Shown in pieces: positions 9,504 to 36,881 of a stretch of DNA of 64,000 bases. Position 1 is the stretch's first letter. The number at the start of each line of letters is the position of its first letter. The DNA comes from Escherichia phage vB_EcoM_ULIM3. The stretch lies in the sequence record OQ850289, one strand, 5' to 3'. Both the position numbers and the translations under genes were made by a program. The notes beneath the pieces were generated by a model that had not been told where the DNA came from, searched no databases, and was given only the letters and a program-made list of their open reading frames with translations.

Positions 9504-9535
9504 AAGGCTCCTTTTTACGGGAGCCTTTTTTGTTT
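9504..9535. terminator. bidirectional intrinsic terminator between convergent units
   Basis: Hairpin AAGGCTCC-TTTTTAC-GGGAGCCTT with T-run on + and A-run upstream (T-run on -). Confidence 0.7.
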
Positions 9536-10434
9536 TACTTGCCTACTGACAGAGGTGCTTCAATCTTCCCTGCATGTTGGTAGTTGTTAATACCACCAAT
9601 AAAGTCACTTGCAGTAAGGTGTTTTAGGTCACTTAGTGTGTTAAGCTGCACACCAATCTCAAAAGTAGGTGCATGGAACTCTTTATTGTTCATCAGTTCA
9701 TAAACCTGCTTCATATGATTCTGATAAATCTGAGTGTCTCCAAAGACACCTATCAAGTATCGTGGAGTGTATCCAGTCATCTTACAAAGAACTTCTAAGA
9801 TGAAGCCATAAGACGCAATATTAAACGGAAGCCCTAAAAAGGTGTCTACAGAACGTTGATACCATTGCAAATCCACTTCACCTTCGTTAGTGATATAAAT
9901 CTGAAACAGTACATGACAAGGTGCTAAAGCCATCGAATTAGCTGCAATATCTGCTGCATTCCAAGCATTAACAAGCATGTAGCGGTCTGTGATATCACCT
10001 TTCATCTTCGTTACTAAGGTTTCTAACTGGTCTACAACACAACCATTATGACCTTCAAAGTTTCTCCACTGAACCCCGTAGATTCTCCCACCTGCATCTT
10101 CTAACCAGTCTTGTTCAGAAGAATAGTTAGAGCTTAACCAGCGTTTAAAATCATCTGACCAGATAGTCCAGCGTTCCCCATCATTTTCACCCCAAGTACG
10201 GTAACGGAGTTCACCAAGTTTATTCTCACCGTTCAGGAACCATAAAGCTTCCCCAATAACTTGCCGTGTAAACACCTGTTTAGATGTTAAGAGTGGGAAA
10301 CCAGTTCTCATATCAAAACGAAATTGTGGTGGAGCAAATGCAGAGATAACGTCTCCAGTTCGTGTAGTACGCAGTTCACCAACGGATAGAACATGGTTCA
10401 GAATATTTTTGTAACTTGAATCTGCTTGTGACAT
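9535..10434 (-). CDS. thyA: thymidylate synthase
   Basis: 299 aa; ThyA motifs ALWFLNG, MALAPCH, LGLPFNIASY, DTQIYQNHM. Confidence 0.9.
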   Translation of the reverse strand: MSQADSSYKNILNHVLSVGELRTTRTGDVISAFAPPQFRFDMRTGFPLLTSKQVFTRQVIGEALWFLNGENKLGELRYRTWGENDGERWTIWSDDFKRWLSSNYSSEQDWLEDAGGRIYGVQWRNFEGHNGCVVDQLETLVTKMKGDITDRYMLVNAWNAADIAANSMALAPCHVLFQIYITNEGEVDLQWYQRSVDTFLGLPFNIASYGFILEVLCKMTGYTPRYLIGVFGDTQIYQNHMKQVYELMNNKEFHAPTFEIGVQLNTLSDLKHLTASDFIGGINNYQHAGKIEAPLSVGK

Positions 10435-10435
10435 A

Positions 10436-10981
10436 TCAAAAGTGTCCTTTTACTTGTGGAACATAAATTTCAAAGGTTGCTTTACCATCATCTGAGGGTC
10501 TTGACTGCACCTTTGCAAATACACGGCTATCATACAATTTATCGAAGAAGTTTTCAAAAGGTAAATACACAGTGGCCTCTTCAGTGACTTTATGGAAAAC
10601 TGTATGGAAAACCACACCAGCATACGGCAAAGCATCGACAAGAACACCTGCACCACCAATTACAAAGACATCTTCATCAATAGAGCTGTCAAGATACTTC
10701 AAAAATGCTCCAAAGGATTCTTTACTAGCCTTAGCATACATTACATCGTCTTTGTCAAAGTCTATACCCAAATATGGAACAGAGTTCGTTAAGACGAGGT
10801 TTGTACGTTCTGGTAATGGTTTGCTACCCAGAGTCTTAAAAGTTTCATTACCCATGACTACTAAGTTATCTTTAGTGAGTCTCTTAAACTCTTGCATATC
10901 CTGTTTATGTCGAGGCCACGGCATACCAGTTGGAGTACCAAACTCCCCATTTTCACCACTTGCAAAGATTAATTTAATCAT
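10436..10981 (-). CDS. frd: dihydrofolate reductase
   Basis: 181 aa; DHFR-like N-terminus (IFA..GxPW, VVMGNETFKTLG, NLVLT); adjacent to thyA as in T4 frd-td. Confidence 0.8.
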   Translation of the reverse strand: MIKLIFASGENGEFGTPTGMPWPRHKQDMQEFKRLTKDNLVVMGNETFKTLGSKPLPERTNLVLTNSVPYLGIDFDKDDVMYAKASKESFGAFLKYLDSSIDEDVFVIGGAGVLVDALPYAGVVFHTVFHKVTEEATVYLPFENFFDKLYDSRVFAKVQSRPSDDGKATFEIYVPQVKGHF

Positions 10982-11238
10982 TTTGTAAATCCTTTCTTAA
11001 TGAACCAGTTGATAACACTCTTCACAGCTTTATTGCTATGGTAGATTAAGTGTGGTGTAGGTTGGTATGAACCATAAGCCCAGAAAGCAATGATTTCATT
11101 ACATCCTGTACACCTTGTACTCTCTTCAGCAATATGACCGTTGACTATTTCACTTACCTCGCCTTGTAAGTCTGTACACCCACAATGTGGACATCGGATA
11201 GGTGTTCCATCAGACTCATAGCAGTGTTCAATTTTCAT
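10978..11238 (-). CDS. small zinc-ribbon protein
   Basis: 86 aa with CPHCGC ... CTGC cysteine pairs. Confidence 0.5.
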   Translation of the reverse strand: MKIEHCYESDGTPIRCPHCGCTDLQGEVSEIVNGHIAEESTRCTGCNEIIAFWAYGSYQPTPHLIYHSNKAVKSVINWFIKKGFTK

Positions 11239-11755
11239 CTATTTAACCTCAAAAACTGGCTCAAGAACCAATATAAAGTCTACACAGTCATCTTCTTCAT
11301 CCAGAATACCATCAAAGTTCTTAGGAACGAAGTCGAAGAGGCTCATAACAAAACAGTCAGAAGTGACCTTAATAGTTCCTCCCATGTTCTCTACAGTTAA
11401 CACTGTACGACTTTCTTTTACCTCCCTCAGAAGATTACCCACAAAGTCATCTAAGAAATACTTCATCAGTGACTTGAAACCTTTAGGGTAATCTGTACCA
11501 GAGTATGTTTCAATCTGAGGAACAAGTTTAACATTTATACTCGTCTTTGTTAAGAACGTGCTAGAGAACATACTATCAGGTAACTTACAAACAGTCTTTC
11601 CAGTACCTTCATGCTCAATCTCAACAAAACCAGCTTCATCGCCACATGTAACTATTTTAAAAGATGCTTCATTCTCATACTGTGAAGCCATAAACTTTTT
11701 AAGCATCTCTTTAAGGAAATCTGCATGAGCATCTTGTAAGTAGATATCAATCATA
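11239..11755 (-). CDS. hypothetical protein
   Basis: Track ORF 11239-11856; shortened to ATG (MIDIY) preceded by AGGTG, which removes overlap with the upstream gene. Confidence 0.5.
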
Positions 11756-11767
11756 GTTAAACACCTA

Positions 11768-12127
11768 TTATGGGAACAGACACTTAATGTCATCGTTTTT
11801 GAAAACGAAGCTTGTGTAGTTGTGACCATCAACATCCAACCAAACAGCCTGAACATCTACACCATCAAGATTCTGGTAAAGCTCTTTGATGAAGTGGTCT
11901 TTCACAATCTGACTGCTAGTTGTTTCCAGCTTAATGTTCGAGATTGCTGAACCTACAGCCATATAGCCCATGACACGTTTCTTCTCAGTATGCTTAATCT
12001 TACCATCTTTGTAAGCCATAATGAGATTGGAGAGAATCTTCACACCATAATACTTTTCAAGGTGAGTTGGTACGCCATAAAAGCCTAATGCGAAGTTTTC
12101 AGAGTGGATAATGTTTTCACGTTTCAT
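11768..12127 (-). CDS. hypothetical protein
   Basis: 119 aa ORF. Confidence 0.5.
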   Translation of the reverse strand: MKRENIIHSENFALGFYGVPTHLEKYYGVKILSNLIMAYKDGKIKHTEKKRVMGYMAVGSAISNIKLETTSSQIVKDHFIKELYQNLDGVDVQAVWLDVDGHNYTSFVFKNDDIKCLFP

Positions 12128-12128
12128 A

Positions 12129-12458
12129 TTAATCTGCCAACCTTAAATTGAAATTAACACCAAATTTTTCACATACTTCCAACATATACTCAAGGGAGAC
12201 GTTACCAGTGAGATGGATTATGTTGGATACACGAGCCTGAGAGATACCACAAATTTTAGCAACTTGCTCTTGAGAAAGGCCTCTGGATTTAATCTCTCTC
12301 TTAAAACGATGTGCAACGAAGTCTCTCATTTCGTCTACATCCATTGGACAAATATAACTCTCCATTTCAGCCTCTCTATCAGCCTCCCAATCATCTTGTG
12401 GGGCATAAGGGTCAAAAACCTCATTCATCTTTCTTCTTCCGTTTGCGTGAAGTGTCAA
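12129..12458 (-). CDS. putative HTH DNA-binding protein
   Basis: 109 aa; helix-turn-helix-like segment LSQEQVAKICGISQARVSNI; start may be the internal Met (MNEVF). Confidence 0.55.
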   Translation of the reverse strand: MTLHANGRRKMNEVFDPYAPQDDWEADREAEMESYICPMDVDEMRDFVAHRFKREIKSRGLSQEQVAKICGISQARVSNIIHLTGNVSLEYMLEVCEKFGVNFNLRLAD

Positions 12459-12633
12459 TCAATGAATCTATGTTTGTAGCCCTAACCTTTTCACGTTCAT
12501 CATTAAGATAATCATCAAGAGCCTTTTCAATCTGTGAATCATCTTGACAGATAACTGTAAAGACTGTAAATCCGTCTGTATCGTCAATTATCTTACCATA
12601 ACCGCTTCTGGGATGTAACTTTTTAAGAGCCAT
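12421..12633 (-). CDS. hypothetical protein
   Basis: 70 aa ORF. Confidence 0.4.
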   Translation of the reverse strand: MALKKLHPRSGYGKIIDDTDGFTVFTVICQDDSQIEKALDDYLNDEREKVRATNIDSLIDTSRKRKKKDE

Positions 12634-12634
12634 A

Positions 12635-13018
12635 TCAAATACCTGTGCAGCTTCTGTTTTCTAAGAAATACTCCACACCATACATAGCTTTTTGCATTAA
12701 ATCTTCTTTAAACTGGATACGATGATTGAGCATAGCCTGTACATCAATATCATCAGGGTGCTTCTCTTTAATGTTTGCAGATTGCAGGAAGTACTCTGCA
12801 AGAACGCGATACTGGTAGTCAGTCACCTTATCAGTCATCTCTGTCAAAGACTCTTCAGAGATGGGTTTAAGTAACTCACCATTAGCTAGAGCAACACCTT
12901 TTACAATCTGGCAAGTGTCTTCTGGAACACCTGATAAGTCCACATTTGGAAGTTCTGTTGCATTGACTGGTAAATTCATTGCCATAACCATTGCAGCAGC
13001 TAATAAAATCTTTTTCAT
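12635..13018 (-). CDS. secreted/periplasmic hypothetical protein
   Basis: 127 aa; N-terminal signal-peptide-like MKKILLAAAMVMAMNLPVNA. Confidence 0.55.
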   Translation of the reverse strand: MKKILLAAAMVMAMNLPVNATELPNVDLSGVPEDTCQIVKGVALANGELLKPISEESLTEMTDKVTDYQYRVLAEYFLQSANIKEKHPDDIDVQAMLNHRIQFKEDLMQKAMYGVEYFLENRSCTGI

Positions 13019-13068
13019 AATGACCTCAAAGTTATATTAAATTTTGTATTACATTGAGTATAAAAATA

Positions 13069-13107
13069 AGCTATAACACCTGACTTGTCAACAGATTTTA
13101 TAGCTTA
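13069..13107 (-). promoter_or_regulatory. palindromic operator-like site overlapping a TTGACA -35 element upstream of 12635-13018
   Basis: AAGCTATAA ... TTATAGCTT 9 bp inverted repeat with TTGACA in the 21 nt spacer (minus-strand reading). Confidence 0.4.
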
Positions 13108-13139
13108 TTTGGCAGATTTTTTATAAGGCTACTGCCATC

Positions 13140-13480
13140 CTTCCATACCAAACCTCACCTGACCTCGCCTAACCCTACCTTACTCCACCATACAGCACCT
13201 TATTAAAACACCCTGTTTAAAGACCTTTTAAAAAGGTAAGTCTCATTTTAATGTAGCTGAGACTAACTACCCATACCTCACCCTACCAGACCCTACCGAA
13301 CATCACTTAAAAACCCTCTTAGAAGACTCTTAAGTGATGTAATCGAATTTTAATGTAGCTCCGATTAACTACCCATACCTCACCTCACCCAACCATACCA
13401 TGCCTTGCCAGACCGCACCTTACCTCATTAAAAGACCCTCTTAAAAGACCTTTTAAAAAGGAGCCTCCGAAGAGGCTACC
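13140..13480 (-). repeat. non-coding repeat region (purine/GGT-rich on - strand) with conserved ~150 bp element
   Basis: No ORF; contains 7 bp inverted repeat AGTCTCA..TGAGACT and 10 bp inverted repeat CATCACTTAA..TTAAGTGATG; element recurs at 14720-14895. Confidence 0.6.
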
Positions 13481-13488
13481 TAGTCAAC

Positions 13489-13929
13489 TTAGAAAGGTTT
13501 TCTACGTTGCTTGTTAATGTTAGCTTTCATAGCAGCTAAATGGTTTTGCTGTTCAATCAGTCGTGAACGTTCTTGATGACTAAGCGCCATAGTGTTCACA
13601 TTCTCAATTGCTTGAGTGGCTTGCTTTAAAGCTCGACCAATCTTACCAGACATTTTGCGTTTTGCAATAGTTGCTTGATGCTTAGGTTCAACCACACGAT
13701 AACCAACACCCATTGAAGCAACCAGATAAATCTTCTCTTCTTTAAGAAGCTTTTCAATAAACTTCTCAAGTCGGTTTAGACGTGTAAGTGCATAAGCCTT
13801 CATTTCATCTTCGTACTTAACAATGTCACCTTGATAAGTTGGCTTCACAATACCTAAGAAGGTGTCCATCTCGGAATGTGATACAGTGTCGCCGTAACTA
13901 AACTTTGCTGCTAATGCTTTTGTATTCAT
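13489..13929 (-). CDS. hypothetical protein
   Basis: 146 aa ORF flanked by repeat regions. Confidence 0.55.
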   Translation of the reverse strand: MNTKALAAKFSYGDTVSHSEMDTFLGIVKPTYQGDIVKYEDEMKAYALTRLNRLEKFIEKLLKEEKIYLVASMGVGYRVVEPKHQATIAKRKMSGKIGRALKQATQAIENVNTMALSHQERSRLIEQQNHLAAMKANINKQRRKPF

Positions 13930-13931
13930 AA

Positions 13932-14537
<606 letters not shown>

Positions 14538-14589
14538 TTAGTTGATTGTTAAGTTGTTTGTAAAGAACCCTCAACAGAAGACTCTTTAG

Positions 14590-14900
14590 AAACTTGGTAG
14601 ATTTTTAACGTGGCTACTACCATCCACCCATACCTCACATCACCATACCATACCATACCATACCATACCATACCTGACCGGACCTAACCAAACTCCACAG
14701 CACCATACATCACATCACACAACCTTATTAAAAGACCCTGTTTAAAGACCCTTTAAAAAGGTAAGTCTCATTTTAATGTAGCTGAGACTAACTACCCATA
14801 CCAAACAGCACCGCACTATGCCTTACCCCACCTCACCGAGCCTCGCCCCACATCACTTAAAAACCCTTTTCAAAGACTCTTAAGGGATGTTGGTGAGTAC
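14590..14900 (-). repeat. non-coding repeat region, second copy of the conserved element plus (CATAC)6 microsatellite
   Basis: No ORF; 14720-14895 near-identical to 13195-13345; pentanucleotide CATAC x6 at 14644-14673. Confidence 0.6.
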
Positions 14901-14954
14901 CCGTTGGTTTATGCTGCTCAGTATACTCACCAAATTTTCTATGTCAACAACTTT

Positions 14955-16055
14955 TTACTCATAATCCCTAATAACTAACCCAACAGGGAACTGTAAAGAC
15001 CCCTTACGAGTCATCTTCTGGAACTGAACCGTTAAAGGCTTCCCGATAAACTCTTCAGGATGCTCAGCCAGATACTGCTTTTTCTCATGAGTGGTTTTCC
15101 ATGAGACATCTACAAAGACGTTAGGAAGAGTCTCTACAACGAACTTACCATGACCACGTTTATCAGTCTTTACACCAGTTACTTTAAACTCTTCAGTGTG
15201 CATCTTCTTGTGCTTAATCAAGAAGTATGAACGGTGACAACACTCATAGAAGGAGTCTTCAGAGATTGAACGGTACATTGCACCTTCAAACTTAGCTTCA
15301 ACCCACTTATCATGAGCTTCATCAAATTCTTCCCAAGAATTTACACGGATAGTCTGCACAGGAACAACTCTACAGGTATCCCCAAGCTCAACAATAGGTG
15401 AGTTATCAATAACTTCACGACGCTCAGGCCAAGATTTTGAATTGTCACAGATATCATACCAGTAGAATTTAAGAAGGTGACGGTCTGGATTGTCAGCATT
15501 CTTAATCATAGACACAATATCTTCTAAGTCCCAACCATGAGCATAAATCTCTCCATCAAAGTCTTCAACTTGCGGATGTAATTTAAGCAACAAAAGTAAG
15601 TCTGGTATTAGTTCTGCTGGAACGTTGTAAACAGTATTCTCACGAGAATAAGCTGTGAAACCGACTGAATCAGCATCTCTTGAAATTCTACAACGTACAC
15701 CATCCAGTTTCGGTTGAGCATCAGCAGGGAACTTCAGATACTTTGCATGACTAACCTTTGCAGCATCATGAGCAAGCTGTACACCTACCTTCTCAGTATT
15801 CTGTGCAGACTCTTTTGTGTAAGCATACCCTTTACGGTCAACTTGCTTTTTATACTTAGCAGCAACTTCAAAGAGAGCTTGCTGTTCAGCATTACGCTCA
15901 TTCTTTTTACCGATGTTTTTAGGTTCTGCTGTATACTCTTCAAACATCATCTTGCCATTTTCTTTGCCATAGGTTGTAATAACCTTGTCACCTACAGCAG
16001 TACATGACCAGATGTTAAAAGAGCCATCTTTATTTTGTTTGTACAGTATTGTCAT
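14955..16055 (-). CDS. ATP-dependent DNA ligase
   Basis: KLDGVRC adenylation motif (KxDG), EGAMY and LIKHKK downstream motifs; start set to ATG 16055 (MTILY) with GAGGA SD. Confidence 0.8.
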   Translation of the reverse strand: MTILYKQNKDGSFNIWSCTAVGDKVITTYGKENGKMMFEEYTAEPKNIGKKNERNAEQQALFEVAAKYKKQVDRKGYAYTKESAQNTEKVGVQLAHDAAKVSHAKYLKFPADAQPKLDGVRCRISRDADSVGFTAYSRENTVYNVPAELIPDLLLLLKLHPQVEDFDGEIYAHGWDLEDIVSMIKNADNPDRHLLKFYWYDICDNSKSWPERREVIDNSPIVELGDTCRVVPVQTIRVNSWEEFDEAHDKWVEAKFEGAMYRSISEDSFYECCHRSYFLIKHKKMHTEEFKVTGVKTDKRGHGKFVVETLPNVFVDVSWKTTHEKKQYLAEHPEEFIGKPLTVQFQKMTRKGSLQFPVGLVIRDYE

Positions 16056-16056
16056 T

Positions 16057-16248
16057 TTATTCCTCTGAGTGATACCAAGTATTGCAAGCATTACATGCGT
16101 AAAGCTCTAAATCATTTTTATCTGGTTTATGAAAACAGTTTGCTCCGCAGTGGCAACGAAACGGTTTTCCACCAACTGTCAGGATGAAGGATTGAACCTT
16201 TCCATCAGGAGTTCGTACAGCATTTTTATGCTTATCTTCTTTGTTCAT
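16057..16248 (-). CDS. small zinc-finger protein
   Basis: 63 aa; CHCGANC ... CNACN cysteine pairs. Confidence 0.5.
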   Translation of the reverse strand: MNKEDKHKNAVRTPDGKVQSFILTVGGKPFRCHCGANCFHKPDKNDLELYACNACNTWYHSEE

Positions 16249-16451
16249 TTTCTCTTACCACCAATCTCTACGTCAATCACTTGAACATCACCAGCAACAT
16301 CGAACTTATGAATGATGCTTTCCACAGTGTAAGTCCAACCCTCGATTCGAACCAACTCACCTTCTCGTGGAACTATTGGATTACGTTGAGCTACGGTTGT
16401 AGTGGAGTGAACAACATCATAACAGTAGATATAGTTTACTAGGACTTCCAT
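16245..16451 (-). CDS. hypothetical protein
   Basis: Track ORF 16245-16550 trimmed to the internal ATG (MEVLV) with GGTGAGGTG SD, avoiding overlap with the lipoprotein gene. Confidence 0.4.
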   Translation of the reverse strand: MEVLVNYIYCYDVVHSTTTVAQRNPIVPREGELVRIEGWTYTVESIIHKFDVAGDVQVIDVEIGGKRK

Positions 16452-16461
16452 CTTGAGCACC

Positions 16462-16719
16462 TCACCCAATAACAGTAGTGTGTGATTGACCATTTTTGCC
16501 ATAGCTATAAGATGTTGTTGTTTGAGAGTTTGGACACCTGACAACAACAATGTCTCTGCTTATGGCATCACCATGTAACTTATAGACTCTGCAATCTTGC
16601 ATCTCTGGTGGGAGGCTATAAGAAGCGTTTTTGTCCTCGTAAGAGGGATTACAGCCAGATAGAAAAATTACTCCAAGTGCAACCATTGCTTTCACACAAC
16701 TCTCAACCTTATTGTTCAC
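16462..16719 (-). CDS. putative lipoprotein
   Basis: 85 aa; signal peptide ending in lipobox-like LSGC. Confidence 0.55.
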   Translation of the reverse strand: MNNKVESCVKAMVALGVIFLSGCNPSYEDKNASYSLPPEMQDCRVYKLHGDAISRDIVVVRCPNSQTTTSYSYGKNGQSHTTVIG

Positions 16720-17491: not shown

Positions 17492-17552
17492 GTGACCTCC
17501 TATACAAGATACAGTATAAGGTACTCTTCCATGAGCACCTTGTCAATACTAA

Positions 17553-20932: not shown

Positions 20933-20933
20933 T

Positions 20934-29337: not shown

Positions 29338-31572
29338 ATGATTAAGACAATTAAAAAATCAAACGGTACAGTAGTAAGCTTTGACCCAGAAAGACTGAAT
29401 AAGTGGGCATCATGGGCAGATAAGCGTGGAATCATCTGGTCAGAAGTCACTATGGAAGCCATGAAACGTGTCTATGAAGGTTGCACTACAAAAGAGATGC
29501 ACCAAGCTATGATTGATGTTTGTGTTGATAAACAAACTCAAGAGTACTCAGACATGGCTGGGCGGCTACTTCTGGGGATTATCTACAAAGAAGCCTTTGG
29601 GGGCTTTACTAAGGTTCCTACGCTGATTACCTTCGTTAAAAATATGGAGAGAGCAGGACTTTGGGAGAAGATGGATTATTCACAGGAAGAGCTTGAATAC
29701 CTGCAAGGTTACATCGTGCACTCAAAAGATATCTCTTACGGTTATGCAGTCTTGAAACAGTTCAGAGACAAGTACGGCATCCGTGATATTAAAACGGGAA
29801 GACTGTTTGAGTCACCACAATTTATGTTTATGGGTATGGCTATGAAAGCCTTTGAGAAGCAACCAAAGCACCGTAGACTGCAAGATGTTATCAAGCTGTA
29901 CACTTACCTATCTGACCTGAAGATTAACGCTCCTACGCCTTATTTAAACGGTTTAAGAGCCACCAAGTCAGGCTATGCGTCATGCTGTTTGATTAAGGCA
30001 AATGATACTGCTGAATCACTTGGTATTGCTGCAAAGGTTGCTTATGATATGACTACAAAGCAAGCTGGTATTGGTATGCTGATGGAGACTCGCACTATTG
30101 GTGATGGTATCCGTCAAAATACTATTGAGCACATGGGTAAACTACCTTATTACAAGCTTGTACGTTCATCTGTAGAGGCAAACAAACAGAAGAGTCGTGG
30201 TGGTTCAGCTAATAACTTCTACACTGCTCTAGACCCGCAGATTGAAGATTTACTGCGTTTGAAGCACCCTACAACGGTTCCTTCTAAACGTATTAATGAG
30301 ATGGACTACTCATTCGGCACAAACGATTATTTCTGGCAGTGTGTTCAGTATGATACAGATTGGTTGCTATTCTCTTACAAAGATGCACCAAAACTCTATG
30401 ATATGTTCTACACAGCATCTGCTGATGAGTTTGCTATGGCAGTTGGTCACGCAGTACATTCAGGAGTTAAGCACAGACGAGTCAAGGCTCGTGAAATTGC
30501 TAAGCTGTTTATTCAACAGCGTTATGCTACAGGTCGTGTGTATCCATTCTTCACTAACAACGCAAACACACATACACCATTTAAAGAACCATTGAAGATG
30601 TCAAATCTTTGTATGGAAATTGTATTGCCAGTGTATGGTTTTGAGAAAGAGACAGACCTTTACAGAGACGATGCTGTGAAAGAGGATGGTGAGGTGGCTC
30701 TTTGCTTCCTAGCTAGTTTGGTTGCAGGGAGAATTTCAGAAGATGAATACGCTGACGTTGCTTATTATGCTCTTGCAATGGTTGACTCCGTTATTGACCT
30801 TATGGATTATCCGTATCCGTCGATGCGTAACCATGTTCAGAAGCGTCGTTCTGTTGGGATTGGCCTTACAAATGTGGCTCATTACCTTGCGAAGAACTAC
30901 GTGAACTACTCTTCACGAGCAGGTAAAACGAAACTTCATGAACTTGCAGAGATGCACTCTTACTATCTGCATGAAGCCTCGCTGAGACTTGCTAAAGAAC
31001 GTGGCGTGCCAGAGTACATGAAGTTCACTAAGTATCCTGAAGGCTGGGTTCCTCCAAAGACAGCTAACAAGAAGATTGATGAAAAGCATGATGCAAAACT
31101 ACGATATGATTGGGATGACTTAGCACAACGTATCAAAGAAAATGGTGGAATCCGAAACTCTGTATTAGAAGCTTACATGCCTAATGAGAGTTCTTCACTA
31201 GCAACTAATACGACAAATGGCTTGTACCCAATTCGTGACTTTATTTTAACTAAAAAGTCTGCAACTGGTAACGTGCTGTTTATTGTTCCAGATTATGAAG
31301 AGTTGAAGTATGTCTATGAAATTGCTTGGGGTATTGACACCTTTGACCTGATTGATTGTTATGCAATTGTTCAAAAGTTCACTGGTCAAGCTATCTCTTC
31401 AGATTTCTATGTTGACTACGCAAAAGCTAAGAAGGTATCATTGGCTCAAGCTTTGAAGTACATGATTTATGCCAACTCGGTAGGTATGAAAACCATGTAC
31501 TACCTTAACAGTCGCATTGGTGTAGGTAAATCTGCACTGCAAGATGCTTATTGCGAGGGTTGTGGTGTTTAG
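29338..31572 (+). CDS. nrdA: ribonucleotide reductase class I alpha subunit
   Basis: 744 aa; N-terminal ATP-cone-like region (VVSFDPERL), large-subunit size, immediately followed by nrdB and glutaredoxin. Confidence 0.85.
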   Translation: MIKTIKKSNGTVVSFDPERLNKWASWADKRGIIWSEVTMEAMKRVYEGCTTKEMHQAMIDVCVDKQTQEYSDMAGRLLLGIIYKEAFGGFTKVPTLITFVKNMERAGLWEKMDYSQEELEYLQGYIVHSKDISYGYAVLKQFRDKYGIRDIKTGRLFESPQFMFMGMAMKAFEKQPKHRRLQDVIKLYTYLSDLKINAPTPYLNGLRATKSGYASCCLIKANDTAESLGIAAKVAYDMTTKQAGIGMLMETRTIGDGIRQNTIEHMGKLPYYKLVRSSVEANKQKSRGGSANNFYTALDPQIEDLLRLKHPTTVPSKRINEMDYSFGTNDYFWQCVQYDTDWLLFSYKDAPKLYDMFYTASADEFAMAVGHAVHSGVKHRRVKAREIAKLFIQQRYATGRVYPFFTNNANTHTPFKEPLKMSNLCMEIVLPVYGFEKETDLYRDDAVKEDGEVALCFLASLVAGRISEDEYADVAYYALAMVDSVIDLMDYPYPSMRNHVQKRRSVGIGLTNVAHYLAKNYVNYSSRAGKTKLHELAEMHSYYLHEASLRLAKERGVPEYMKFTKYPEGWVPPKTANKKIDEKHDAKLRYDWDDLAQRIKENGGIRNSVLEAYMPNESSSLATNTTNGLYPIRDFILTKKSATGNVLFIVPDYEELKYVYEIAWGIDTFDLIDCYAIVQKFTGQAISSDFYVDYAKAKKVSLAQALKYMIYANSVGMKTMYYLNSRIGVGKSALQDAYCEGCGV

Positions 31573-31627
31573 TTTTAACAACTATGAGGGTCGTAAAAGA
31601 CCCTCTAAAAATAACTTTGGAGAGACC

Positions 31628-31885
31628 ATGAAAGATTTAATAGAAAAACATGAGCGACCAATATACTTGCTCTACAAACCCCGCAAAACATTGTACTATG
31701 TGAGCAGCACAGGTATCATGATAAAGCAGAATGATGACTTATGGGTCACTGGAGCATCTTACATCTCTACAGCAGATGGTAAAATCTACGCAAGACCTTA
31801 TGAGATGTTTAACAAAGAGAATTGGGAAGTTTTAGACAGAAAACAAGCCTTAGAAATGATAAAGAAAGGAGAAATCACGCTATGA
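31628..31885 (+). CDS. hypothetical protein
   Basis: Track ORF 31544-31885 trimmed to ATG 31628 (MKDLIEK) with GGAGAG SD. Confidence 0.4.
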   Translation: MKDLIEKHERPIYLLYKPRKTLYYVSSTGIMIKQNDDLWVTGASYISTADGKIYARPYEMFNKENWEVLDRKQALEMIKKGEITL

Positions 31886-32955
31886 TTAACCAGCACCCAA
31901 TCTTTTTAGGTGGTGAGAGAAAAACTTTTGACTCACTTAATAAGCACTACCCAAAAATCTTCGAACTTTATAAACAACAAAAAGCACAAGACTGGTCAGA
32001 AGATGAGTTCCCTTTTGAACAATCACGTCTTGATTTTGAGAGTGTCCCAGCATCAATGTCAGGTGTAATGCTTGAGATTCTTAAGTGGCAGTGGGAAGCA
32101 GACACTCAAGTTGCTAAGAGCTTGGCATTTGCCTTTGCACCCTTTATCTCTGATGACATCTATGCAACTGCAATTATGAAGCAGTCTGAGATTGAAAACC
32201 TACACGCTCTTACTTACTCAGAGATTGTAAGACAATGTATTAAAAACCCTGAAACAATCTTAGATGAGATTAACCAGAATGTTGCTGTACAAGACCGATT
32301 AAAAACTGTGAATCGTGTTCTTGAAGAATTACTGGATGAAGGTATAAACTATCGTCTGAGTTATGTGCGTGACTCACTTCTGGACAAAGACCCTTTACAC
32401 TTCCATAAAGTGATTCTAAAAGGTCTATTTGCAGTGACTGCACTTGAAGGTATTTCTTTTATGGCATCTTTTGCATGTACTTTTGCACTTGATGCTCAAG
32501 ATAAATTTCAAGGTATTGCTCAAGCTGTCCAGAAAATTATGCTTGACGAAATCCTTCACACTAAAATTGATATTGAAGTTTTAAAAGAAACTTTAAGAGA
32601 TGATGAGTGGCAAAAAGCTTTCCAACAAATTCTTCCAGAGATTAAAGTAATCTTAGATGAAGTAGTTGAAAGTGAAGAGAAATGGTCGTATTATATCTTC
32701 TCCGAAGGACGTGCTGTAGTTGGGTTAAATACAAAGCTTCTTCATGAGTGGGTTTACTATAATGCTGCCCCACTGTATGATATGTTTGGCATTCCCAGAG
32801 ATTTTGTAGCTCCTAAAGAACCACCTTTGAAGTATATGATTAAGAAGATGGAAATTGATAAAGAGCAGAATGCTAATCAGGAGCAACAGAACGGTGCGTA
32901 TTTATTGAATACTATTGTAGATGATTTGAATAGTGGATTTTTAGAGGTTCCTTAA
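31882..32955 (+). CDS. nrdB: ribonucleotide reductase class I beta subunit
   Basis: Start set to ATG 31882 with AAGGAG SD; small-subunit size, directly after nrdA. Confidence 0.8.
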   Translation: MINQHPIFLGGERKTFDSLNKHYPKIFELYKQQKAQDWSEDEFPFEQSRLDFESVPASMSGVMLEILKWQWEADTQVAKSLAFAFAPFISDDIYATAIMKQSEIENLHALTYSEIVRQCIKNPETILDEINQNVAVQDRLKTVNRVLEELLDEGINYRLSYVRDSLLDKDPLHFHKVILKGLFAVTALEGISFMASFACTFALDAQDKFQGIAQAVQKIMLDEILHTKIDIEVLKETLRDDEWQKAFQQILPEIKVILDEVVESEEKWSYYIFSEGRAVVGLNTKLLHEWVYYNAAPLYDMFGIPRDFVAPKEPPLKYMIKKMEIDKEQNANQEQQNGAYLLNTIVDDLNSGFLEVP

Positions 32956-33197
32956 TGACTTATGTAATTTACTCCAAAACTGGATGCCCTCAGTGTGAGA
33001 CTGCAAAGAATTTTGCGAAAGCTCGTGGTATTGACCATGTTGTGAGAATGTTAGGGCAGGATTATGAACTGCCAGACCTGATGGATATTGCACAGATGCC
33101 AGTTCGTCAGATGCCATTCATCATGAAAACTGACGGTCAAAACCTAAAACCTGTTGGGACGCTACAGAATTTTATGGCAGAGGTGAATAATGCTTAA
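32955..33197 (+). CDS. glutaredoxin-like protein
   Basis: 80 aa; N-terminal CPQC redox motif (YSKTGCPQCETAK). Confidence 0.75.
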   Translation: MTYVIYSKTGCPQCETAKNFAKARGIDHVVRMLGQDYELPDLMDIAQMPVRQMPFIMKTDGQNLKPVGTLQNFMAEVNNA

Positions 33198-33396
33198 ACG
33201 CATTTGGGAAGGTTTGGTTGTTGATGCACCAGCTATTGTGATTGGTATGCTGATTGTTAACCTATTTACTGACTTTGAACAAGGTTCATTGTTTGGAGCC
33301 ATGTTACTATGGGTTATCTTCGAAATATTAGAGATACAGCTAGGCATCACTGAAAAACTAAGAAAACTCGTTTCAAAGTTTTCTAAAAAGATTTAA
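33190..33396 (+). CDS. small membrane protein
   Basis: 68 aa hydrophobic ORF. Confidence 0.4.
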   Translation: MLKRIWEGLVVDAPAIVIGMLIVNLFTDFEQGSLFGAMLLWVIFEILEIQLGITEKLRKLVSKFSKKI

Positions 33397-33401
33397 AATG
33401 A

Positions 33402-33425
33402 AAGGGTCTCTTCGGAGACCTTTTT
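33402..33425 (+). terminator. intrinsic terminator
   Basis: GGGTCTC-TTCG-GAGACC followed by TTTTT. Confidence 0.7.
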
Positions 33426-33444
33426 AGCATGTAAAGGTGCAATA

Positions 33445-35589
33445 ATGAACAAAGTACAGATTATTAAAAAGAATGGCTCACTTGAAGAACCTGATATCAA
33501 AAAAGTTTTAGCAGCAGTAACTAAGTCAGCTAACAGGGTTGGATATAAAGAACTCCCACCAGATGTTACCCAAGCTCTTGAGTCAGCATTCATGAGGATT
33601 CTGGTAAAGTCCACTAAGCAGAATAATTTACTCATCTCAGTCAATGATATTCACAGCATTGTTGAGGGTGCTTTGGCAGAAGTCAATCACGAGATTTATG
33701 AGTCTTACTCAACATACAGAAATTACCGGAAAGAGGTTGCTCAAAATTGGGATGAGCTTTACCAAAAGACTAGAGACACGCTCTTCTTAGGTGACCGTGA
33801 AAACGCTAACTTTGACAGCAGTTTAATTTCTACAAAAGGTTCAATTATTCGTGGTTACCTGACTAAAGAAATCTTTAAGCAGTACCATTTAACACCAGAG
33901 GAACTTGAAGCCATTGAAAAAGGGTTTATCTACATCCATGACTTAAGAGACCTGATTTTTGGCGGCATTAACTGTTGCTTGTTTGACATTGGTAAAGTAC
34001 TGAAAGGTGGCTTTGAAATGTCTGGCATCGAATACTGTGAACCGAAGTCTGTACTGTCAGCCTTACAGGTTATTGGTGATGTAGTTCTTTCAGCAACTGC
34101 ACAGCAATTTGGCGGCTTTACTTTAGCAGAGATTGATAAGGTACTTGTACCGTATGCTAAGAAGTCTCTACGCTACCATGCTGAGAAAGCAGCATCTTAT
34201 GGTATTCCTAAAGAACATTACCATAATTATATCATGGAGCAGCTACAGATTGAATTAACTCAAGGTTTTCAGTCACTTGAAATGAAACTGAACACTGTAC
34301 CTTGCAGCCGTGGTGATTTCGCATTCACAACTTTAACATTTGGTTTACTTGACTCAGATATGTCTAATGAAGACAACCGACTACAATACATGATTGCAAG
34401 TACTCTCCTAGATGTTCGTATGAATGGACAAGGTAAGAGCAAAAAACCTGTTGTATTCCCTAAACTTGTTTATATCTACGACCAGAAGAGACATGATGAA
34501 AATATCTGTCAAGGTCACCTGTACAGTAAAGCTATTGAGTGTTGCTCTAAAGCAATGTATCCAGATTTCTTAAGTGTATCTGGTCATGGTGCTGTAGCAG
34601 AGGCTTTTGAGCGTTCTGGTAAGGTGATTTCACCGATGGGTTGCAGAGCCTTCTTATCTCCATATCTTAATGAGGATGGGGAAGAGTTCTATGTTGGTCG
34701 TGCTAACATTGGTGCTGTATCTTTGAACTTGCCAATGATTTACCAGTATTCTAAAGAGAATGGTTTAGATTTCTGGAAAGAGCTTGATAAGTACCTAGAG
34801 ATGATTCGCAGCTTCCACAAGAAACGCTACGAAATGATTGCTAATATGCCAGCAAGTTCTAACCCTCTTGCATTCACACAAGGTGGTTTGTACAAAGGTA
34901 TTAAGAAACCTACTGATAAGGTTGGTTGGGATATTGTGAAGTCCTTCACAGCTTCTTTTGGGGTTACCGCACTGGATGAGTTATCTGTTCTTGCTGAAGG
35001 TAAACGGCTGCATGAAGCTGGGAGCTATAGTTTTGCATACGATGTTCTGGCATACATTAACATGAAAACTGAAGAGTTTAAAAATGAAGATGGCTTCTTA
35101 TATGCTGTCTATGGTACTCCAGCAGAATCACTTTGTGGAACTCAGCTAAAACAGTTCAGAGAAATGTTTGGTGTTATTAAAGGCGTTTCTGACAAGGAAT
35201 ACTTTACAAACAGTTTCCATATGAATGTTACGGCAGACATCTCACCATTTGAGAAGCAGGACTTAGAAGAGCCATTCTTCCATATCTGTAGAGGTGGCAG
35301 AATCCAGTATGTAAGGGTAGCTAACCCAGAAAACTTAACAGCACTTAAAAGTTGTATTACCAGAGGGATGTTGAAGGGTTTTTATCAGGGACTTAACTTT
35401 GACTTAGCAATCTGTGAGCATTGTGGTAACAGACCAAAGGCTGATGTTGAAGAATGTGAGGTTTGCCATTCACATGATATCTCTGTGATTAACAGGGTGT
35501 GTGGGTATCTTGGGTGGACTAAGATTAAAGGCGAATCCCGAATGAACGATGCAAAAATTGCTGAGATTCGTGACAGAATCTCTATGTAA
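33445..35589 (+). CDS. nrdD: anaerobic ribonucleoside-triphosphate reductase
   Basis: 714 aa; C-terminal Cys cluster CEHCGN..CEVCH and glycyl-radical motif RVCGYLG. Confidence 0.85.
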   Translation: MNKVQIIKKNGSLEEPDIKKVLAAVTKSANRVGYKELPPDVTQALESAFMRILVKSTKQNNLLISVNDIHSIVEGALAEVNHEIYESYSTYRNYRKEVAQNWDELYQKTRDTLFLGDRENANFDSSLISTKGSIIRGYLTKEIFKQYHLTPEELEAIEKGFIYIHDLRDLIFGGINCCLFDIGKVLKGGFEMSGIEYCEPKSVLSALQVIGDVVLSATAQQFGGFTLAEIDKVLVPYAKKSLRYHAEKAASYGIPKEHYHNYIMEQLQIELTQGFQSLEMKLNTVPCSRGDFAFTTLTFGLLDSDMSNEDNRLQYMIASTLLDVRMNGQGKSKKPVVFPKLVYIYDQKRHDENICQGHLYSKAIECCSKAMYPDFLSVSGHGAVAEAFERSGKVISPMGCRAFLSPYLNEDGEEFYVGRANIGAVSLNLPMIYQYSKENGLDFWKELDKYLEMIRSFHKKRYEMIANMPASSNPLAFTQGGLYKGIKKPTDKVGWDIVKSFTASFGVTALDELSVLAEGKRLHEAGSYSFAYDVLAYINMKTEEFKNEDGFLYAVYGTPAESLCGTQLKQFREMFGVIKGVSDKEYFTNSFHMNVTADISPFEKQDLEEPFFHICRGGRIQYVRVANPENLTALKSCITRGMLKGFYQGLNFDLAICEHCGNRPKADVEECEVCHSHDISVINRVCGYLGWTKIKGESRMNDAKIAEIRDRISM

Positions 35590-35598
35590 AACTTGACA

Positions 35599-35639
35599 AG
35601 GTGATGTGGGTGTTGATAGGCTTACATCACCTTTTTTAT
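35599..35639 (+). terminator. intrinsic terminator
   Basis: AGGTGATGT-loop-ACATCACCT followed by TTTTTT. Confidence 0.6.
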
Positions 35640-35743
35640 TGGATGTTAGACATGGCAGAGAGTATTATTGGGTTGTTCATAGGTTCTGTCTTACTAGGGT
35701 TCTTTTTAGGACTCTCTTATTGTGAGTTGAGAGATAAGTTAAA

Positions 35744-35944
35744 ATGTTTAAAATACCAAAAACGTTGATATACATACTACATATTCTAGTCTTCTTCTTT
35801 GGGGTTAGTGTTATGGTATGGGGTTTCTCAGACCCACAATGGAGTTTTGCATATCATGGTCAGATGGATTTATGGTCATGCTTCAAACCATTTTTAGGGT
35901 TAGCTATAGCATTCAGTGCATTGCCAACTAAGGTGAAATTATGA
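35744..35944 (+). CDS. small membrane protein
   Basis: 66 aa, two hydrophobic segments. Confidence 0.45.
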   Translation: MFKIPKTLIYILHILVFFFGVSVMVWGFSDPQWSFAYHGQMDLWSCFKPFLGLAIAFSALPTKVKL

Positions 35945-36336
35945 TTAAGTTGAACCAAAAACAGTTAGAGTGGATTAAAGATTATGCCTCAGAGTGTGGC
36001 TCTTATGAAAAGAATCACGTAAGATACTCAACATTCCACACGACCTTTACATTGTACATTAGTGACAACGTTCTAAGTGATTCCGTAGAAGATTGTGCAG
36101 CGTTGCCTAATGAGTTGCTTGACAAATTAGTTGTAGTCACTGGAACTTGGTCTGAAGAAGACGGCCATGAATTATCTAACGATGTTGTCTTCTACAGTAT
36201 TGATAACATTATGAATCCAGAGTACATTATGTTAATGACTTGTGCACAAGACTGTGTGCCATTGCAAAACTTCATTAAAGAGCACTGTGAAGAGTTTATT
36301 ACTAAACTGGTTCCTTATCAGGTGGTATTTGAATGA
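35941..36336 (+). CDS. hypothetical protein
   Basis: 131 aa ORF. Confidence 0.5.
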   Translation: MIKLNQKQLEWIKDYASECGSYEKNHVRYSTFHTTFTLYISDNVLSDSVEDCAALPNELLDKLVVVTGTWSEEDGHELSNDVVFYSIDNIMNPEYIMLMTCAQDCVPLQNFIKEHCEEFITKLVPYQVVFE

Positions 36337-36395
36337 GTAAAACAATTCGAAGAAAAGGTTTAAATAATATTTATATGTATTGGTGAGGTAACTAG

Positions 36396-36881
36396 ATGAA
36401 TTACATGGAGATTAGGCCATTTGACACAGCTAATGGTGAAGGGGTTCGTGTAAGCCTCTTTGTAGCTGGTTGTAAGCACCACTGTGAAGGCTGCTTCAAC
36501 AGGGAGTCTTGGAAGTTTAATGCTGGTAAAGAGTTTACTTATGCAAACCTCTACGGCATCATTAAGTTAATGGATGATGAGGCCATCAGTGGGTTGTCAA
36601 TACTCGGTGGAGAACCTCTGGATGATAGAAATATTCGGGAGGTCACCAACATTTGTAAACGTATTAAAACTGTTTACCCAGAAAAGTCTATCTGGCTCTG
36701 GACAGGGTTTCAACTACACGAAAAAATTCACTTAGATGTGATGAAATATGTTGACGTGGTGATTGATGGTAAGTATGATTCATCTAAACCAACAGTCAAA
36801 CCTTATCGTGGTTCTGATAACCAAAACCTCTGGAGAAAAGAGTATGGGTGGCAAGGTGATTGTCAATGGCGAGCAGAATAA
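36396..36881 (+). CDS. nrdG: anaerobic ribonucleotide reductase activating protein (radical SAM)
   Basis: 161 aa; CKHHCEGCFN = CxxxCxxC radical-SAM cluster motif near N-terminus. Confidence 0.8.
   Translation: MNYMEIRPFDTANGEGVRVSLFVAGCKHHCEGCFNRESWKFNAGKEFTYANLYGIIKLMDDEAISGLSILGGEPLDDRNIREVTNICKRIKTVYPEKSIWLWTGFQLHEKIHLDVMKYVDVVIDGKYDSSKPTVKPYRGSDNQNLWRKEYGWQGDCQWRAE

Follow-up and report, generated by a model that had tools for sequence, protein, structure and literature searches.

Escherichia phage vB_EcoM_ULIM3 very probably carries the standard DNA-metabolism genes of Felixounavirus, an old combination inherited collinearly in at least three genera

We analyzed a window of 64,000 nucleotides of Escherichia phage vB_EcoM_ULIM3 (OQ850289; the window is this whole stretch), and we are confident that it belongs to a Felixounavirus with the standard DNA-metabolism genes of its group, an old combination whose backbone has been inherited collinearly in at least three genera. 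The window makes up about 73% of a Felixounavirus genome (subfamily Ounavirinae, family Andersonviridae), and the group (Felix O1, wV8 and VpaE1) consists of virulent myoviruses that infect Escherichia, Salmonella and Shigella. A sequence-only reading had placed at 9535-36881 a mosaic, mixed-ancestry set of replication and nucleotide-metabolism genes that marked a highly autonomous virulent phage. All the genes that it listed are present, each backed by a profile, motif or structure-database match (Table 1); td to nrdG fall inside this 27-kb span, but not rIIA/rIIB (42496-46051) or the baseplate (285-8852). The virulent lifestyle was also borne out, as Felixounavirus relatives are described as lytic and lacking temperate markers (PMC11737134; PMC3185647). 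What did not hold is the mosaic as a feature of this window: the complement is fixed and published for the Felix O1 group as a whole. In 2010 the genome paper on Felix O1 reported the same replication and nucleotide-metabolism genes with the same outside affinities, among them a polymerase and a primase-helicase that are T7-like, a baseplate protein resembling P2 gpV and a fibre resembling T4 gp37.

Table 1. Features of the window, with amino-acid identity (%) to the homologues in Hena2 and Arno162
Feature	Position	Strand	Basis or content	Hena2	Arno162
Simple baseplate module, P2/Mu-type order	285-4974	+	Pfam PF22479, PF18352, PF04865; PHROG hub and wedge families		
Baseplate plug (Pam3_gp18)	285-626	+			
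Baseplate hub	626-1603	+			
Baseplate spike (Gp138_N-type)	1603-2226	+			
Baseplate wedge-1	2226-2645	+			
Baseplate wedge-2 / Baseplate_J (J-like)	2645-4114	+		52	48
Baseplate I-like protein	4111-4974	+			
Two tail-fibre genes	5279-6451, 6498-8852	+	Pfam gp37_trimer (E 2e-62), gp37_C, Gp10_C		
Thymidylate synthase (td)	9535-10434	-	PF00303, E 4e-73	44	52
Dihydrofolate reductase (frd)	10436-10981	-	PF00186, E 2e-22		
ATP-dependent DNA ligase	14955-16091	-	PF01068, 32.6 bits (cut-off 26.2)	63	39
Family A DNA polymerase (PolA), N-terminal 3'-5' exonuclease domain	17553-20282	-	PF00476, 55.6 bits (cut-off 34.3)	63	68
dNMP kinase, T4 gp1 family	21808-22551	+	PF21448, 77 bits, E 2e-21	26	37
T7 gp4-type bifunctional primase-helicase	22747-24738	+	Zn finger, Toprim (Toprim_2), DnaB_C domains	69	68
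285-aa conserved protein, candidate gp2.5-type SSB	25213-26070	+	Acidic C-terminal tail, position		
5'-3' exonuclease, T7 gp6-like	26134-27174	+	PHROG 107	54	51
GIY-YIG (SegE-type) nuclease-domain protein	27164-27661	+	PF19835, E 1e-27	62	52
Class Ia RNR cassette	29338-33197	+	Pfam; nrdA 29338-31572, nrdB 31822-32955, glutaredoxin 32955-33197		
Class III RNR cassette	33445-36881	+	Pfam; nrdD 33445-35589, nrdG 36396-36881		
PRPP synthetase	38378-39274	+	Pfam	42	45
HNH endonuclease gene	39283-39774	+	Separates PRPP synthetase and NAMPT genes		
Nicotinamide phosphoribosyltransferase (NAMPT)	39789-41570	+	Pfam	46	50
rIIA	42496-44862	+	PHROG 612, E 2e-189; tblastn to T4-like rIIA	36	41
rIIB	44942-46051	+	PHROG 609, E 1e-88	58	55
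Equivalent of the genus's ~0.58-kb direct terminal repeat	57800-58389		Inside 1.5-kb ORF-free region 57370-58930		

At the nucleotide level, positions 1-6000 and 9000-37000 were 99.7-100% identical to Escherichia phage VpaE1_ev035 (LR699048). A 1-kb identity profile against this phage showed the span 9535-36881 to be a single block at 99.7-100%, with patchy identity outside it (78-99%): 93-97% in the tail-fibre stretch at 6-9 kb, between flanks of ~100%, 78-94% at 37-40 kb, and 87-99% at 42-64 kb. Megablast of positions 9535-30000 (99.8% identical to VpaE1_ev035) matched 268 phage records, 153 of which cover at least 80%, and over 150 complete genomes of phages share the block. The taxonomy of the matches likewise supports the genus assignment. 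Gene order was identical between the window and its annotated relatives, and VpaE1_ev035, wV8 (EU877232), VpaE1 and Salmonella phage Felix O1 have both its gene content and its order. The 37-40 kb stretch includes an extra HNH gene that is missing in VpaE1_ev035 (~450 unaligned bases at 39273-39774) and whose product is 34% identical to T7 gp3.8. Because no record in the phage collection matched the whole window at 99% or more, and because identity is lower in the right third (87-99% to VpaE1_ev035, ~94% to the best other match), we consider the phage a recombinant strain.

Some proteins of the group have been deposited under bacterial names (e.g. Shigella flexneri), as might be expected if the window came from a bacterial prophage or island, or from a chimeric assembly, and not from a lytic phage genome. 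This we regard as extremely improbable: along its entire length the window is collinear with phage genomes that are complete and linear (84-92 kb), neither an integrase nor host flanking DNA was seen in it, and its internal terminal-repeat region is what is expected of a circularly assembled lytic phage contig that was opened arbitrarily. Bases 1-581 of phage D4 (PP886228) recur at 88859-89439, and both copies map to 57800-58389 of the window; direct terminal repeats have been reported via PhageTerm (PMC11737134). The terminal-repeat region also holds phased TGTTAAG arrays.

Two phages of other genera, Hena2 of Erwinia (Kolesnikvirus) and Arno162 of Pectobacterium (Arnovirus), have a backbone collinear with that of this phage, with amino-acid identities of 26-69%. 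The backbone comprises the baseplate, td, ligase, PolA, dNMP kinase, primase-helicase, acidic 285-aa protein and exonuclease, followed by the GIY-YIG protein, MazG, PRPP synthetase, NAMPT, rIIA and rIIB; a large number of small ORFs is not shared. Collinearity at such identities in two further genera leads us to infer that the backbone was assembled anciently and has been inherited as a unit. Vertical inheritance would also draw on the pairwise identities, but these are markedly uneven between genes (63 versus 39% for the ligase and 26 versus 37% for the dNMP kinase in Hena2 and Arno162, respectively) and to that extent speak against it. The GIY-YIG protein, labelled 'NAD synthetase' or 'Phage protein' in public records, is conserved and collinear in all three genera and is therefore a backbone gene rather than a recent homing insertion.

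Could recent, independent transfers from T7-like, T4-like and P2/Mu-like donors instead account for the replication, nucleotide-metabolism and baseplate modules? The best outside relatives do vary by module, with the primase-helicase and polymerase nearest T7-type proteins, the dNMP kinase and rIIA nearest T4-like proteins, and Baseplate_J and gpV-type domains in the baseplate. However, identities outside the family are 21-36% for these genes, far too low for recent transfer, P2 gives no match at all, and GC is uniform over the modules (0.37-0.41). A recent mosaic is effectively refuted because this set of genes occurs in one conserved order in three genera whose proteins have diverged to 26-69% identity, and we judge it very unlikely. 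Within Andersonviridae the modules appear largely to share one lineage history, given the collinearity and the single ~100% block. Ancestry is mixed only at a deep, generic level, where the replisome is nearest T7-type and the ribonucleotide reductases (RNRs) are bacterial-type; the RNR slot also varies. Vibrio phage ICP1 (Mohonavirus) matches 12 of the 106 window ORFs, including NrdA (47% identical), NrdB (44%), NrdD (54%), NrdG (43%), PRPP synthetase (37%), NAMPT (42%), the baseplate J-like protein (29%) and the primase-helicase (21%), but its metabolic genes are no nearer than bacterial homologues and its genome layout differs.

The replication proteins resemble those of T7 at low identities overall, although the virion here is that of a myovirus. 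The primase-helicase, with its Zn finger at C21-C47, matches T7 gp4 structures (E 2e-40) and is 27.9% identical to T7 gp4 over 599 aa (E 4e-43). The polymerase, which matches its wV8 counterpart at 100% identity, had T7 gp5 as its top solved match (E 4.5e-11); it is 22% identical to gp5 (E 1e-12) and has the exonuclease domain in common with it, but carries a ~75 aa insertion between motifs A and B. Alignment to T7 gp5 placed ExoI at DTE 24-26, motif A at D607, motif B at R715/K719/Y723 and motif C at HDE 857-859. The steric-gate position is Gln here and Glu480 in T7. The exonuclease is 21% identical to T7 gp6 over 221 aa (E 2e-5). The ligase has the adenylation motif K128-L-D-G, it is nearest to the ligases of ASFV and Chlorella virus among solved structures, and tblastn against T7 gp1.3 gave no match.

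The 285-aa protein may be a gp2.5-type single-stranded DNA-binding protein (SSB). Its C-terminus is acidic (last residues ...DEDFDTED), the acidic tail and the tail Phe are invariant in 11 homologues, and its gene lies between the primase-helicase and exonuclease genes in three genera, a place in which an SSB would be expected by comparison with T7. It had no Pfam or PDB match, belongs to PHROG 3877 (function unknown), and reached an hhalign probability of only 24% against T7 gp2.5.

In the RNR slot, the top solved match of NrdA was E. coli NrdA (E 4e-126), and the glutaredoxin active site is CPQC. The class III cassette (PF13597, ATP cone, Gly_radical, Fer4_12), in which small ORFs separate nrdD and nrdG, encodes an NrdD with an ATP cone and an RVCGYLG glycyl-radical motif and an NrdG with the motif CKHHCEGC. 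NrdA and NrdD are ~31% and ~30% identical to T4-like enzymes but 47-57% to rV5-like, ICP1 and bacterial enzymes (NrdD 52-55% to Vibrio, Photobacterium and Sutterella NrdD), and the ATP cone distinguishes this NrdD from T4-like NrdD. Judged by sequence, the RNRs are bacterial-type, nearest to bacterial, rV5-like and ICP1 enzymes, and not T4-type. The complement differs among genera: the window has classes I and III, Hena2 class I only (without nrdD and nrdG), and Arno162 class III only (without nrdA, nrdB, grx and frd). This complementary presence, with both cassettes in the window at one map position, might reflect independent gains of nrdAB-grx and nrdDG by different genera from cellular or other phage sources. 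In line with such gains, NrdA is 55% identical to that of the unrelated Klebsiella phage KB57 versus 57% to that of Hena2 from the same subfamily, NrdD is 52-55% identical to those of Vibrionaceae, Sutterella and ICP1 versus 57-60% to those of family members Arno162 and P778, and the NrdD ATP cone is bacterial-type, T4-like NrdD alignments leaving it uncovered. However, the best matches beyond the genus are still within-family copies in the same slot, a pattern that also fits ancestral presence followed by loss of nrdDG in Kolesnikvirus and of nrdAB/grx/frd in Arnovirus, and slow RNR evolution would give similar identities to many lineages without transfer. We therefore hold independent gain to be possible but somewhat doubtful.

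The T4 precursor genes (gene 1, frd, td, nrdAB, nrdC and nrdDG) and rIIA/rIIB have counterparts of the same enzyme families here. In the window frd adjoins td, upstream in the direction of transcription, and in T4 the two genes are adjacent in the same order; the pair here lies 18 kb from nrdAB, on the opposite strand. The label 'T4-like' was sustained at the family level and not beyond: the dNMP kinase, which matches the T4 gp1 structure (PDB 1DEK, E 5e-4), is ~25-28% identical to T4-like gp1, rIIA shares ~30-36% identity with T4-like rIIA over its N-terminal third, and td, found in both Hena2 and Arno162, is no nearer to T4 td than to bacterial ThyA. Both rIIA and rIIB, likewise found in Hena2 and Arno162, had no Pfam match and were recognised by PHROG profiles and tblastn only. 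A MazG-like pyrophosphatase gene is also present, and an Rfam scan of the whole window, which covered group I introns, gave no match at or above a family's gathering threshold.

The baseplate J-like protein (489 aa) matches 'wedge protein 2' (gp023) in the solved baseplate of the Felixounavirus phage Bas63 (PDB 9ndy, E=0), and is essentially identical to it; the Bas63 cryo-EM paper describes this baseplate as minimal and compact. The 'P2-like' character of the baseplate in the window is real only at the level of profiles and gene order, since the order spike, W-like, J-like, I-like, fibre agrees with the P2 V-W-J-I-H operon, but tblastn against P2 V/W/J/I found no match, and P2 gpJ has ~300 aa. 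In contrast to a P2/Mu-type baseplate, the fibres here bear T4 gp37/gp10-type C-terminal domains.

Enzyme identities are demonstrated by these sequence matches, and roles in infection would be those of the respective families. A T7-type replisome of gp4-like primase-helicase, gp5-like polymerase, gp6-like exonuclease and ATP-dependent ligase, probably with the acidic-tailed SSB, would copy the genome. NrdAB-Grx (aerobic) and NrdDG (anaerobic) reductases would supply dNDPs and dNTPs, Td and Frd would provide dTMP, the gp1-type kinase would phosphorylate dNMPs, and PRPP synthetase and NAMPT may aid nucleotide and NAD supply. Autonomy would extend to dNTP supply and DNA replication, in which the phage appears largely self-sufficient, but transcription appears host-dependent because the Felix O1 paper reported host-type sigma-70 promoters; such promoters in relatives suggest that, unlike T7, the phage has no RNA polymerase of its own. 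Beyond the RNR slot, variation is confined to free-standing homing endonucleases, tail fibres and the early region: homing endonucleases are gained and lost, within-genus recombination patches lie outside 9535-36881, and the early region and tail fibres are also exchanged by recombination among genus members. Taken together, the gene complement is one already known for the Felix O1 group, and its combination of T7-like replication, T4-like nucleotide metabolism and a simple baseplate is a published, inherited hallmark of that group rather than a new mosaic.

The window belongs to the genus Felixounavirus (Ounavirinae, Andersonviridae), the classification carried by the records that match it. 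In a megablast search of 50,697 phage records with positions 9535-30000, 268 records matched, nearly all of them Felix O1-type phages of Escherichia, Salmonella and Shigella, and at least 80% of the query was covered by 153 records. The best match was Escherichia phage VpaE1_ev035 (99.8%, full query); dozens of Felixounavirus members were 94-99.8% identical across 98-100% of this 20-kb query, and over the rest of the window identity was 92-99%. The open reading frames (ORFs) of the window coincide gene for gene with the annotated maps of two such relatives, HMD-P10 and VpaE1_ev035, and follow the Felixounavirus order of tail and baseplate genes, a minus-strand block from td to the polymerase, and a plus-strand block running from the kinase through the ribonucleotide reductases (RNRs) and NAMPT to rII. 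The genus is also defined by a genome of ~84-90 kb, a cluster of ~20-24 tRNA genes and short direct terminal repeats. A tRNA scan of the whole window found none, the VpaE1_ev035 cluster lying in a part of the genome outside it, and an Rfam scan of the whole window found nothing, which leaves the window without group I introns or RNA genes to account for.

The sequence-only reading had seen a mosaic replication and nucleotide-metabolism complement at 9535-36881, and every gene that it named was recovered by Pfam, PHROG, PDB-sequence and motif checks. The genes from td to nrdG do lie within that span; rIIA/rIIB and the baseplate module lie outside it. The same programme has further members in the exonuclease, the MazG-like pyrophosphatase, PRPP synthetase, NAMPT, the GIY-YIG protein and the 285-aa protein. 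It has been reported that Felix O1 encodes an exonuclease, aerobic and anaerobic RNRs, PRPP synthetase, a phosphoribosyltransferase, DHFR, dNMP kinase, thymidylate synthase, a ligase, a polymerase closest to podovirus polymerases including that of T7, a primase/helicase closest to those of T7-like phages, a P2 gpV-like baseplate protein, T4 gp37-like fibres, rIIA/rIIB and multiple HNH endonucleases (PMC3185647, 2010). Because that paper and the Bas63 baseplate study cover the gene set, the feature is the ordinary, already known gene complement of Felix O1-like phages. Its value as a discovery is small: hundreds of genomes carry the set, and its resemblances to T7, T4 and P2 had been set out for Felix O1 by 2010.

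Features of the window, with amino-acid identity to the counterparts in Erwinia phage Hena2 and Pectobacterium phage Arno162
Feature	Position	Strand	Hena2	Arno162	Details
Baseplate module	285-4974		52% (J-like)	48% (J-like)	plug, hub, spike, wedge, Baseplate_J, I-like
td	9535-10434	-	44%	52%	adjoins frd
frd	10436-10981	-			adjoins td
Two ORFs	13489-13929; 13932-14534	-			PHROGs 5926 and 4652
ATP-dependent ligase	14955-16091		63%	39%	KxDG motif K128-L-D-G; PF01068 32.6 bits (cut-off 26.2)
Family A polymerase (PolA)	17553-20282	-	63%	68%	DNA_pol_A 55.6 bits (cut-off 34.3)
270-aa ORF	20934-21746	+			in replication module
dNMP kinase, gp1 family	21808-22551		26%	37%	full-length PF21448, 77 bits (cut-off 27)
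Primase-helicase, T7 gp4-type	22747-24738		69%	68%	Zn finger 21-47, Toprim_2 225-283, DnaB_C 338-496
285-aa 'hypothetical protein'	25213-26070	+			between primase-helicase and exonuclease
gp6-like exonuclease	26134-27174		54%	51%	
GIY-YIG (SegE-type) protein	27164-27661	+	62%	52%	165 aa; Pfam E 1e-27; overlaps exonuclease stop codon
MazG-like pyrophosphatase	27907-28662				
nrdA, nrdB, CPQC glutaredoxin	29338-33197				PF02867, PF00317, PF03477; PF00268; PF00462
nrdD, nrdG	33445-36881				PF13597 (E 1e-114), ATP cone, Gly_radical; RVCGYLG (NrdD), CKHHCEGC (NrdG)
PRPP synthetase, NAMPT	38378-41570		42%, 46%	45%, 50%	
HNH endonuclease	39283-39774	+			HNH_3 and AP2-like domains
rIIA, rIIB	42496-46051		36%, 58%	41%, 55%	adjacent; PHROG 612 (E 2e-189), PHROG 609 (E 1e-88)
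Early-region repeats	50904-57088				two repeat families
Terminal-repeat region	57370-58930				~1.5 kb, ORF-free, low GC

The polymerase, 100% identical in protein sequence to that of phage wV8, is a family A enzyme with a 3'-5' exonuclease ExoI motif, and alignment with T7 gp5 placed its catalytic sites at D24/E26 (ExoI), D607 (motif A), R715/K719/Y723 (motif B) and H857-D-E (motif C). Residues 606-613, in motif A, read VDMNSAQL, with Gln612 aligned to the conserved motif-A Glu (T7 Glu480), the residue that serves family A polymerases as sugar 'steric gate'; motifs A and B are separated by an insertion of ~75 residues. Both Gln612 and the insertion were invariant across the Felixounavirus window and the Kolesnikvirus and Arnovirus phages compared (three genera). 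The ligase is an ATP-dependent DNA ligase of the nucleotidyltransferase superfamily, its OB domain (PF14743) scoring 23.2 bits, under the cut-off of 28. The primase-helicase combines a Cys4 zinc finger, a Toprim domain and a DnaB/RecA-type helicase in one polypeptide, and its residues 151-594 match T7 gp4 structures (E 2e-40). The 285-aa protein is kept in the three genera and has at its C-terminus an acidic tail (...DDEEDEDFDTED) whose Phe is invariant. T7 gp2.5 and bacterial SSBs end likewise, and this tail and the position of the gene suggest a candidate gp2.5-type replisome SSB. A phmmer search of this protein against the PDB gave no match, hhalign with T7 gp2.5 reached no more than 24% probability, and the structure models were unusable (pLDDT 36.7 from the single sequence and 40.5 from an 11-sequence alignment), which makes their Foldseek matches meaningless.

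The description of the precursor and rII genes as T4-like holds at family level and not below it. Its full-length profile match places the dNMP kinase in the family of T4 gp1, a kinase of dGMP, dTMP and hm-dCMP; the direct match to 1DEK was weak, and identity to T4-like gp1 is ~25-28%. The td product is no nearer to T4 td than to bacterial ThyA, and the RNRs are not of T4 type. Homology and adjacency assign rIIA and rIIB to the T4 rII pair, which in T4 protects against Rex-type exclusion and acts in lysis timing. The pair had no Pfam model match; only PHROG profiles and tblastn detected it, similarity of rIIA to T4-like rIIA being confined to residues ~10-330, the N-terminal third (30-36% identity).

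A Mu/P2-like baseplate had also been proposed, and here gene order and domains agree with P2: the order spike (V)-W-J-I-fibre and the gp25-like and Baseplate_J domains correspond to the P2 V-W-J-I-H map. In a tblastn search of all window ORFs against P2, the V, W, J and I counterparts were unmatched and the only matches were of short fibre repeats to gpH, so that 'P2-like' holds at the level of profiles and gene order. Two fibres with gp37/gp10 domains lie downstream of the module. The J-like protein matches gp023 of the Felixounavirus Bas63 (PDB 9ndy) with E=0; the cryo-EM study of Bas63 solved the baseplate of this genus, termed it minimal and compact, and reported structural relatedness to T4, phiTE and GP4 (PMC12609058, 2025).

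To place the complement beyond the genus, we compared the 106 window ORFs with three genomes, those of Hena2 (Kolesnikvirus), Arno162 (Arnovirus; both genera belong to Andersonviridae) and Vibrio phage ICP1. The backbone was present and collinear in Hena2 and Arno162, from which we infer that the combination of a T7-type replisome, a T4-type kinase and rII pair and a simple baseplate predates the genus split and was passed on as one unit. Beyond the family identity fell steeply, to at most 31% for the polymerase, to at most 29% for the primase-helicase (with T7-like phages) and to ~30-36% for rIIA, which excludes those groups as recent donors. Taken together, these comparisons indicate that what looks like a mosaic is an old architecture of the family, passed on stably. 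The proposed modular, mixed ancestry is thus partly supported: the backbone is common, and the RNR slot differs between genera; real module flux is narrowed to this slot, homing endonucleases, tail fibres and the early region.

Within the genus, identity to the full VpaE1_ev035 genome, profiled in 1-kb steps, was 99.7-100% at 1-6000 and 9000-37000, 93-97% in the tail-fibre region (6000-9000), 78-94% with ~450 extra bases at 37000-40000, and a patchwork of 87-99% at 42000-64000, which includes the early region. This profile indicates that the whole of 9535-36881 is one block with one recent history, and the drops at 6-9, 37-40 and 42-64 kb carry the signature of recombination among genus members. 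No record in the phage collection reached 99% identity for the right part of the window, which therefore comes from an unsampled recombinant strain within the genus, one absent from that collection.

Several smaller genes differ in how far they are shared. The HNH endonuclease gene sits as an insertion in the gap between PRPP synthetase and NAMPT and is missing in the otherwise near-identical VpaE1_ev035; its product is 34% identical to T7 gp3.8. Since Arno162 has an annotated homing endonuclease in the same gap, the gap suggests a recurrent homing site. The GIY-YIG protein is labelled 'NAD synthetase' or 'Phage protein' in public records and PHROG 447, and a PDB sequence search with it gave no significant match. 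Because Kolesnikvirus and Arnovirus have it in collinear position with 52-62% identity, its gene looks like a core gene and not a mobile homing endonuclease; by analogy, a T4 EndoII-like role in host-DNA degradation is conceivable. A sigma-70-like site close to consensus (TTGACA-16-TATACT, 14947-14920) and a hairpin resembling a terminator (13477-13462) flank the ORFs of PHROGs 5926 and 4652, which have no counterpart in Hena2. On the minus strand, 13462-14947 looks like a self-contained, moron-like unit within the replication block; a sigma-70 promoter and terminator scan of 9000-22000 gave counts not above shuffled expectation, and from it no more than individual sites are used, purely as description. 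The 270-aa ORF carries the doubtful label 'minor tail protein', given by public records and PHROG 4251; no homologue of it was detectable in Hena2 or Arno162, where similar-sized ORFs occupy the same position.

The terminal-repeat region lies between convergent transcription units, and the 581-bp direct terminal repeat of phage D4 maps to 57800-58389 within it. Arrays of YTGTTAR / CTATAAAG-type motifs, spaced 10-11 nt apart, run through the repeat and its flanks, with an inverted YTGTTAR form at the left repeat edge, and 27 of the 94 YTGTTAR matches in the window fall inside 1.05 kb of this region. As Hena2 shows enrichment of the motif at the homologous end too, the array is probably a conserved protein-binding array for packaging or replication initiation. 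Such arrays recall the short-repeat arrays beside the T7 terminal repetition. Ahead of the early genes stand seven copies of a conserved intergenic cassette (…ATCAACGGGGAGGGAATGACCTTCCCCACTAAATAAAGTCCTAAACTAGGAGATTC..ATG; a hairpin, then the ribosome-binding site), and a second repeat family has five 101-nt copies; both are probably repeated promoter or leader units. Direct repeats between early genes have been reported in Felix O1 (PMC3185647). Together with the candidate SSB, the mislabelled GIY-YIG protein and the odd motif-A residue of the polymerase, the terminal-repeat arrays are under-annotated features of a phage group in therapeutic use.

The genera differ clearly at module level in one place, the RNR slot. 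At one and the same position (29338-37543), the window carries nrdAB with glutaredoxin as well as nrdDG, Hena2 carries nrdAB with glutaredoxin only, and Arno162, which is also without frd, carries nrdDG only. The first set encodes a class Ia RNR with glutaredoxin; among solved structures NrdA is best matched by E. coli class Ia R1, and the NrdA ATP cone (PF03477) scored 20.5 bits, under the cut-off of 25.8. The second encodes a class III RNR, with the glycyl-radical motif in NrdD and the radical-SAM CxxxCxxC motif in NrdG, and NrdD matches the T4 NrdD structure (E 3e-75). NrdA is 55% identical to that of Klebsiella phage KB57, 47-49% to ICP1 and ~31% to T4-like phages; NrdD is 57-60% identical to those of Arno162 and Yersinia phage P778, 52-55% to Vibrio, Photobacterium and Sutterella enzymes and to ICP1, and ~30% to T4-like phages, which are without the ATP-cone region. 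Both window RNRs are bacterial-type, not T4-type, enzymes. We considered a special phage-to-phage link with ICP1 (NrdD 53.5%) and dropped it, bacterial NrdDs being equally similar. The Hena2 comparison had pointed to nrdDG as a gain specific to Felixounavirus, a reading weakened by the 57-60% identity of NrdD in Arno162 and P778, in or near the family. We lean towards ancestral presence with differential loss over independent gains, because the within-family copies are the best matches from outside the genus and occupy the same slot.

It is possible, if somewhat short of probable, that the slot flanked by the MazG-like gene and PRPP synthetase is a genus-specific site of exchange or loss in Andersonviridae that is matched to host oxygen ecology. 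Enteric Felixounaviruses would then retain both class I and class III RNRs, the Erwinia lineage of aerobic plant surfaces class I only, and the Pectobacterium lineage, with its low-oxygen soft-rot hosts, class III only. If this is so, the RNR cassette, adaptive and swappable, would be the only truly mosaic part of the complement, on a backbone that is vertically inherited.
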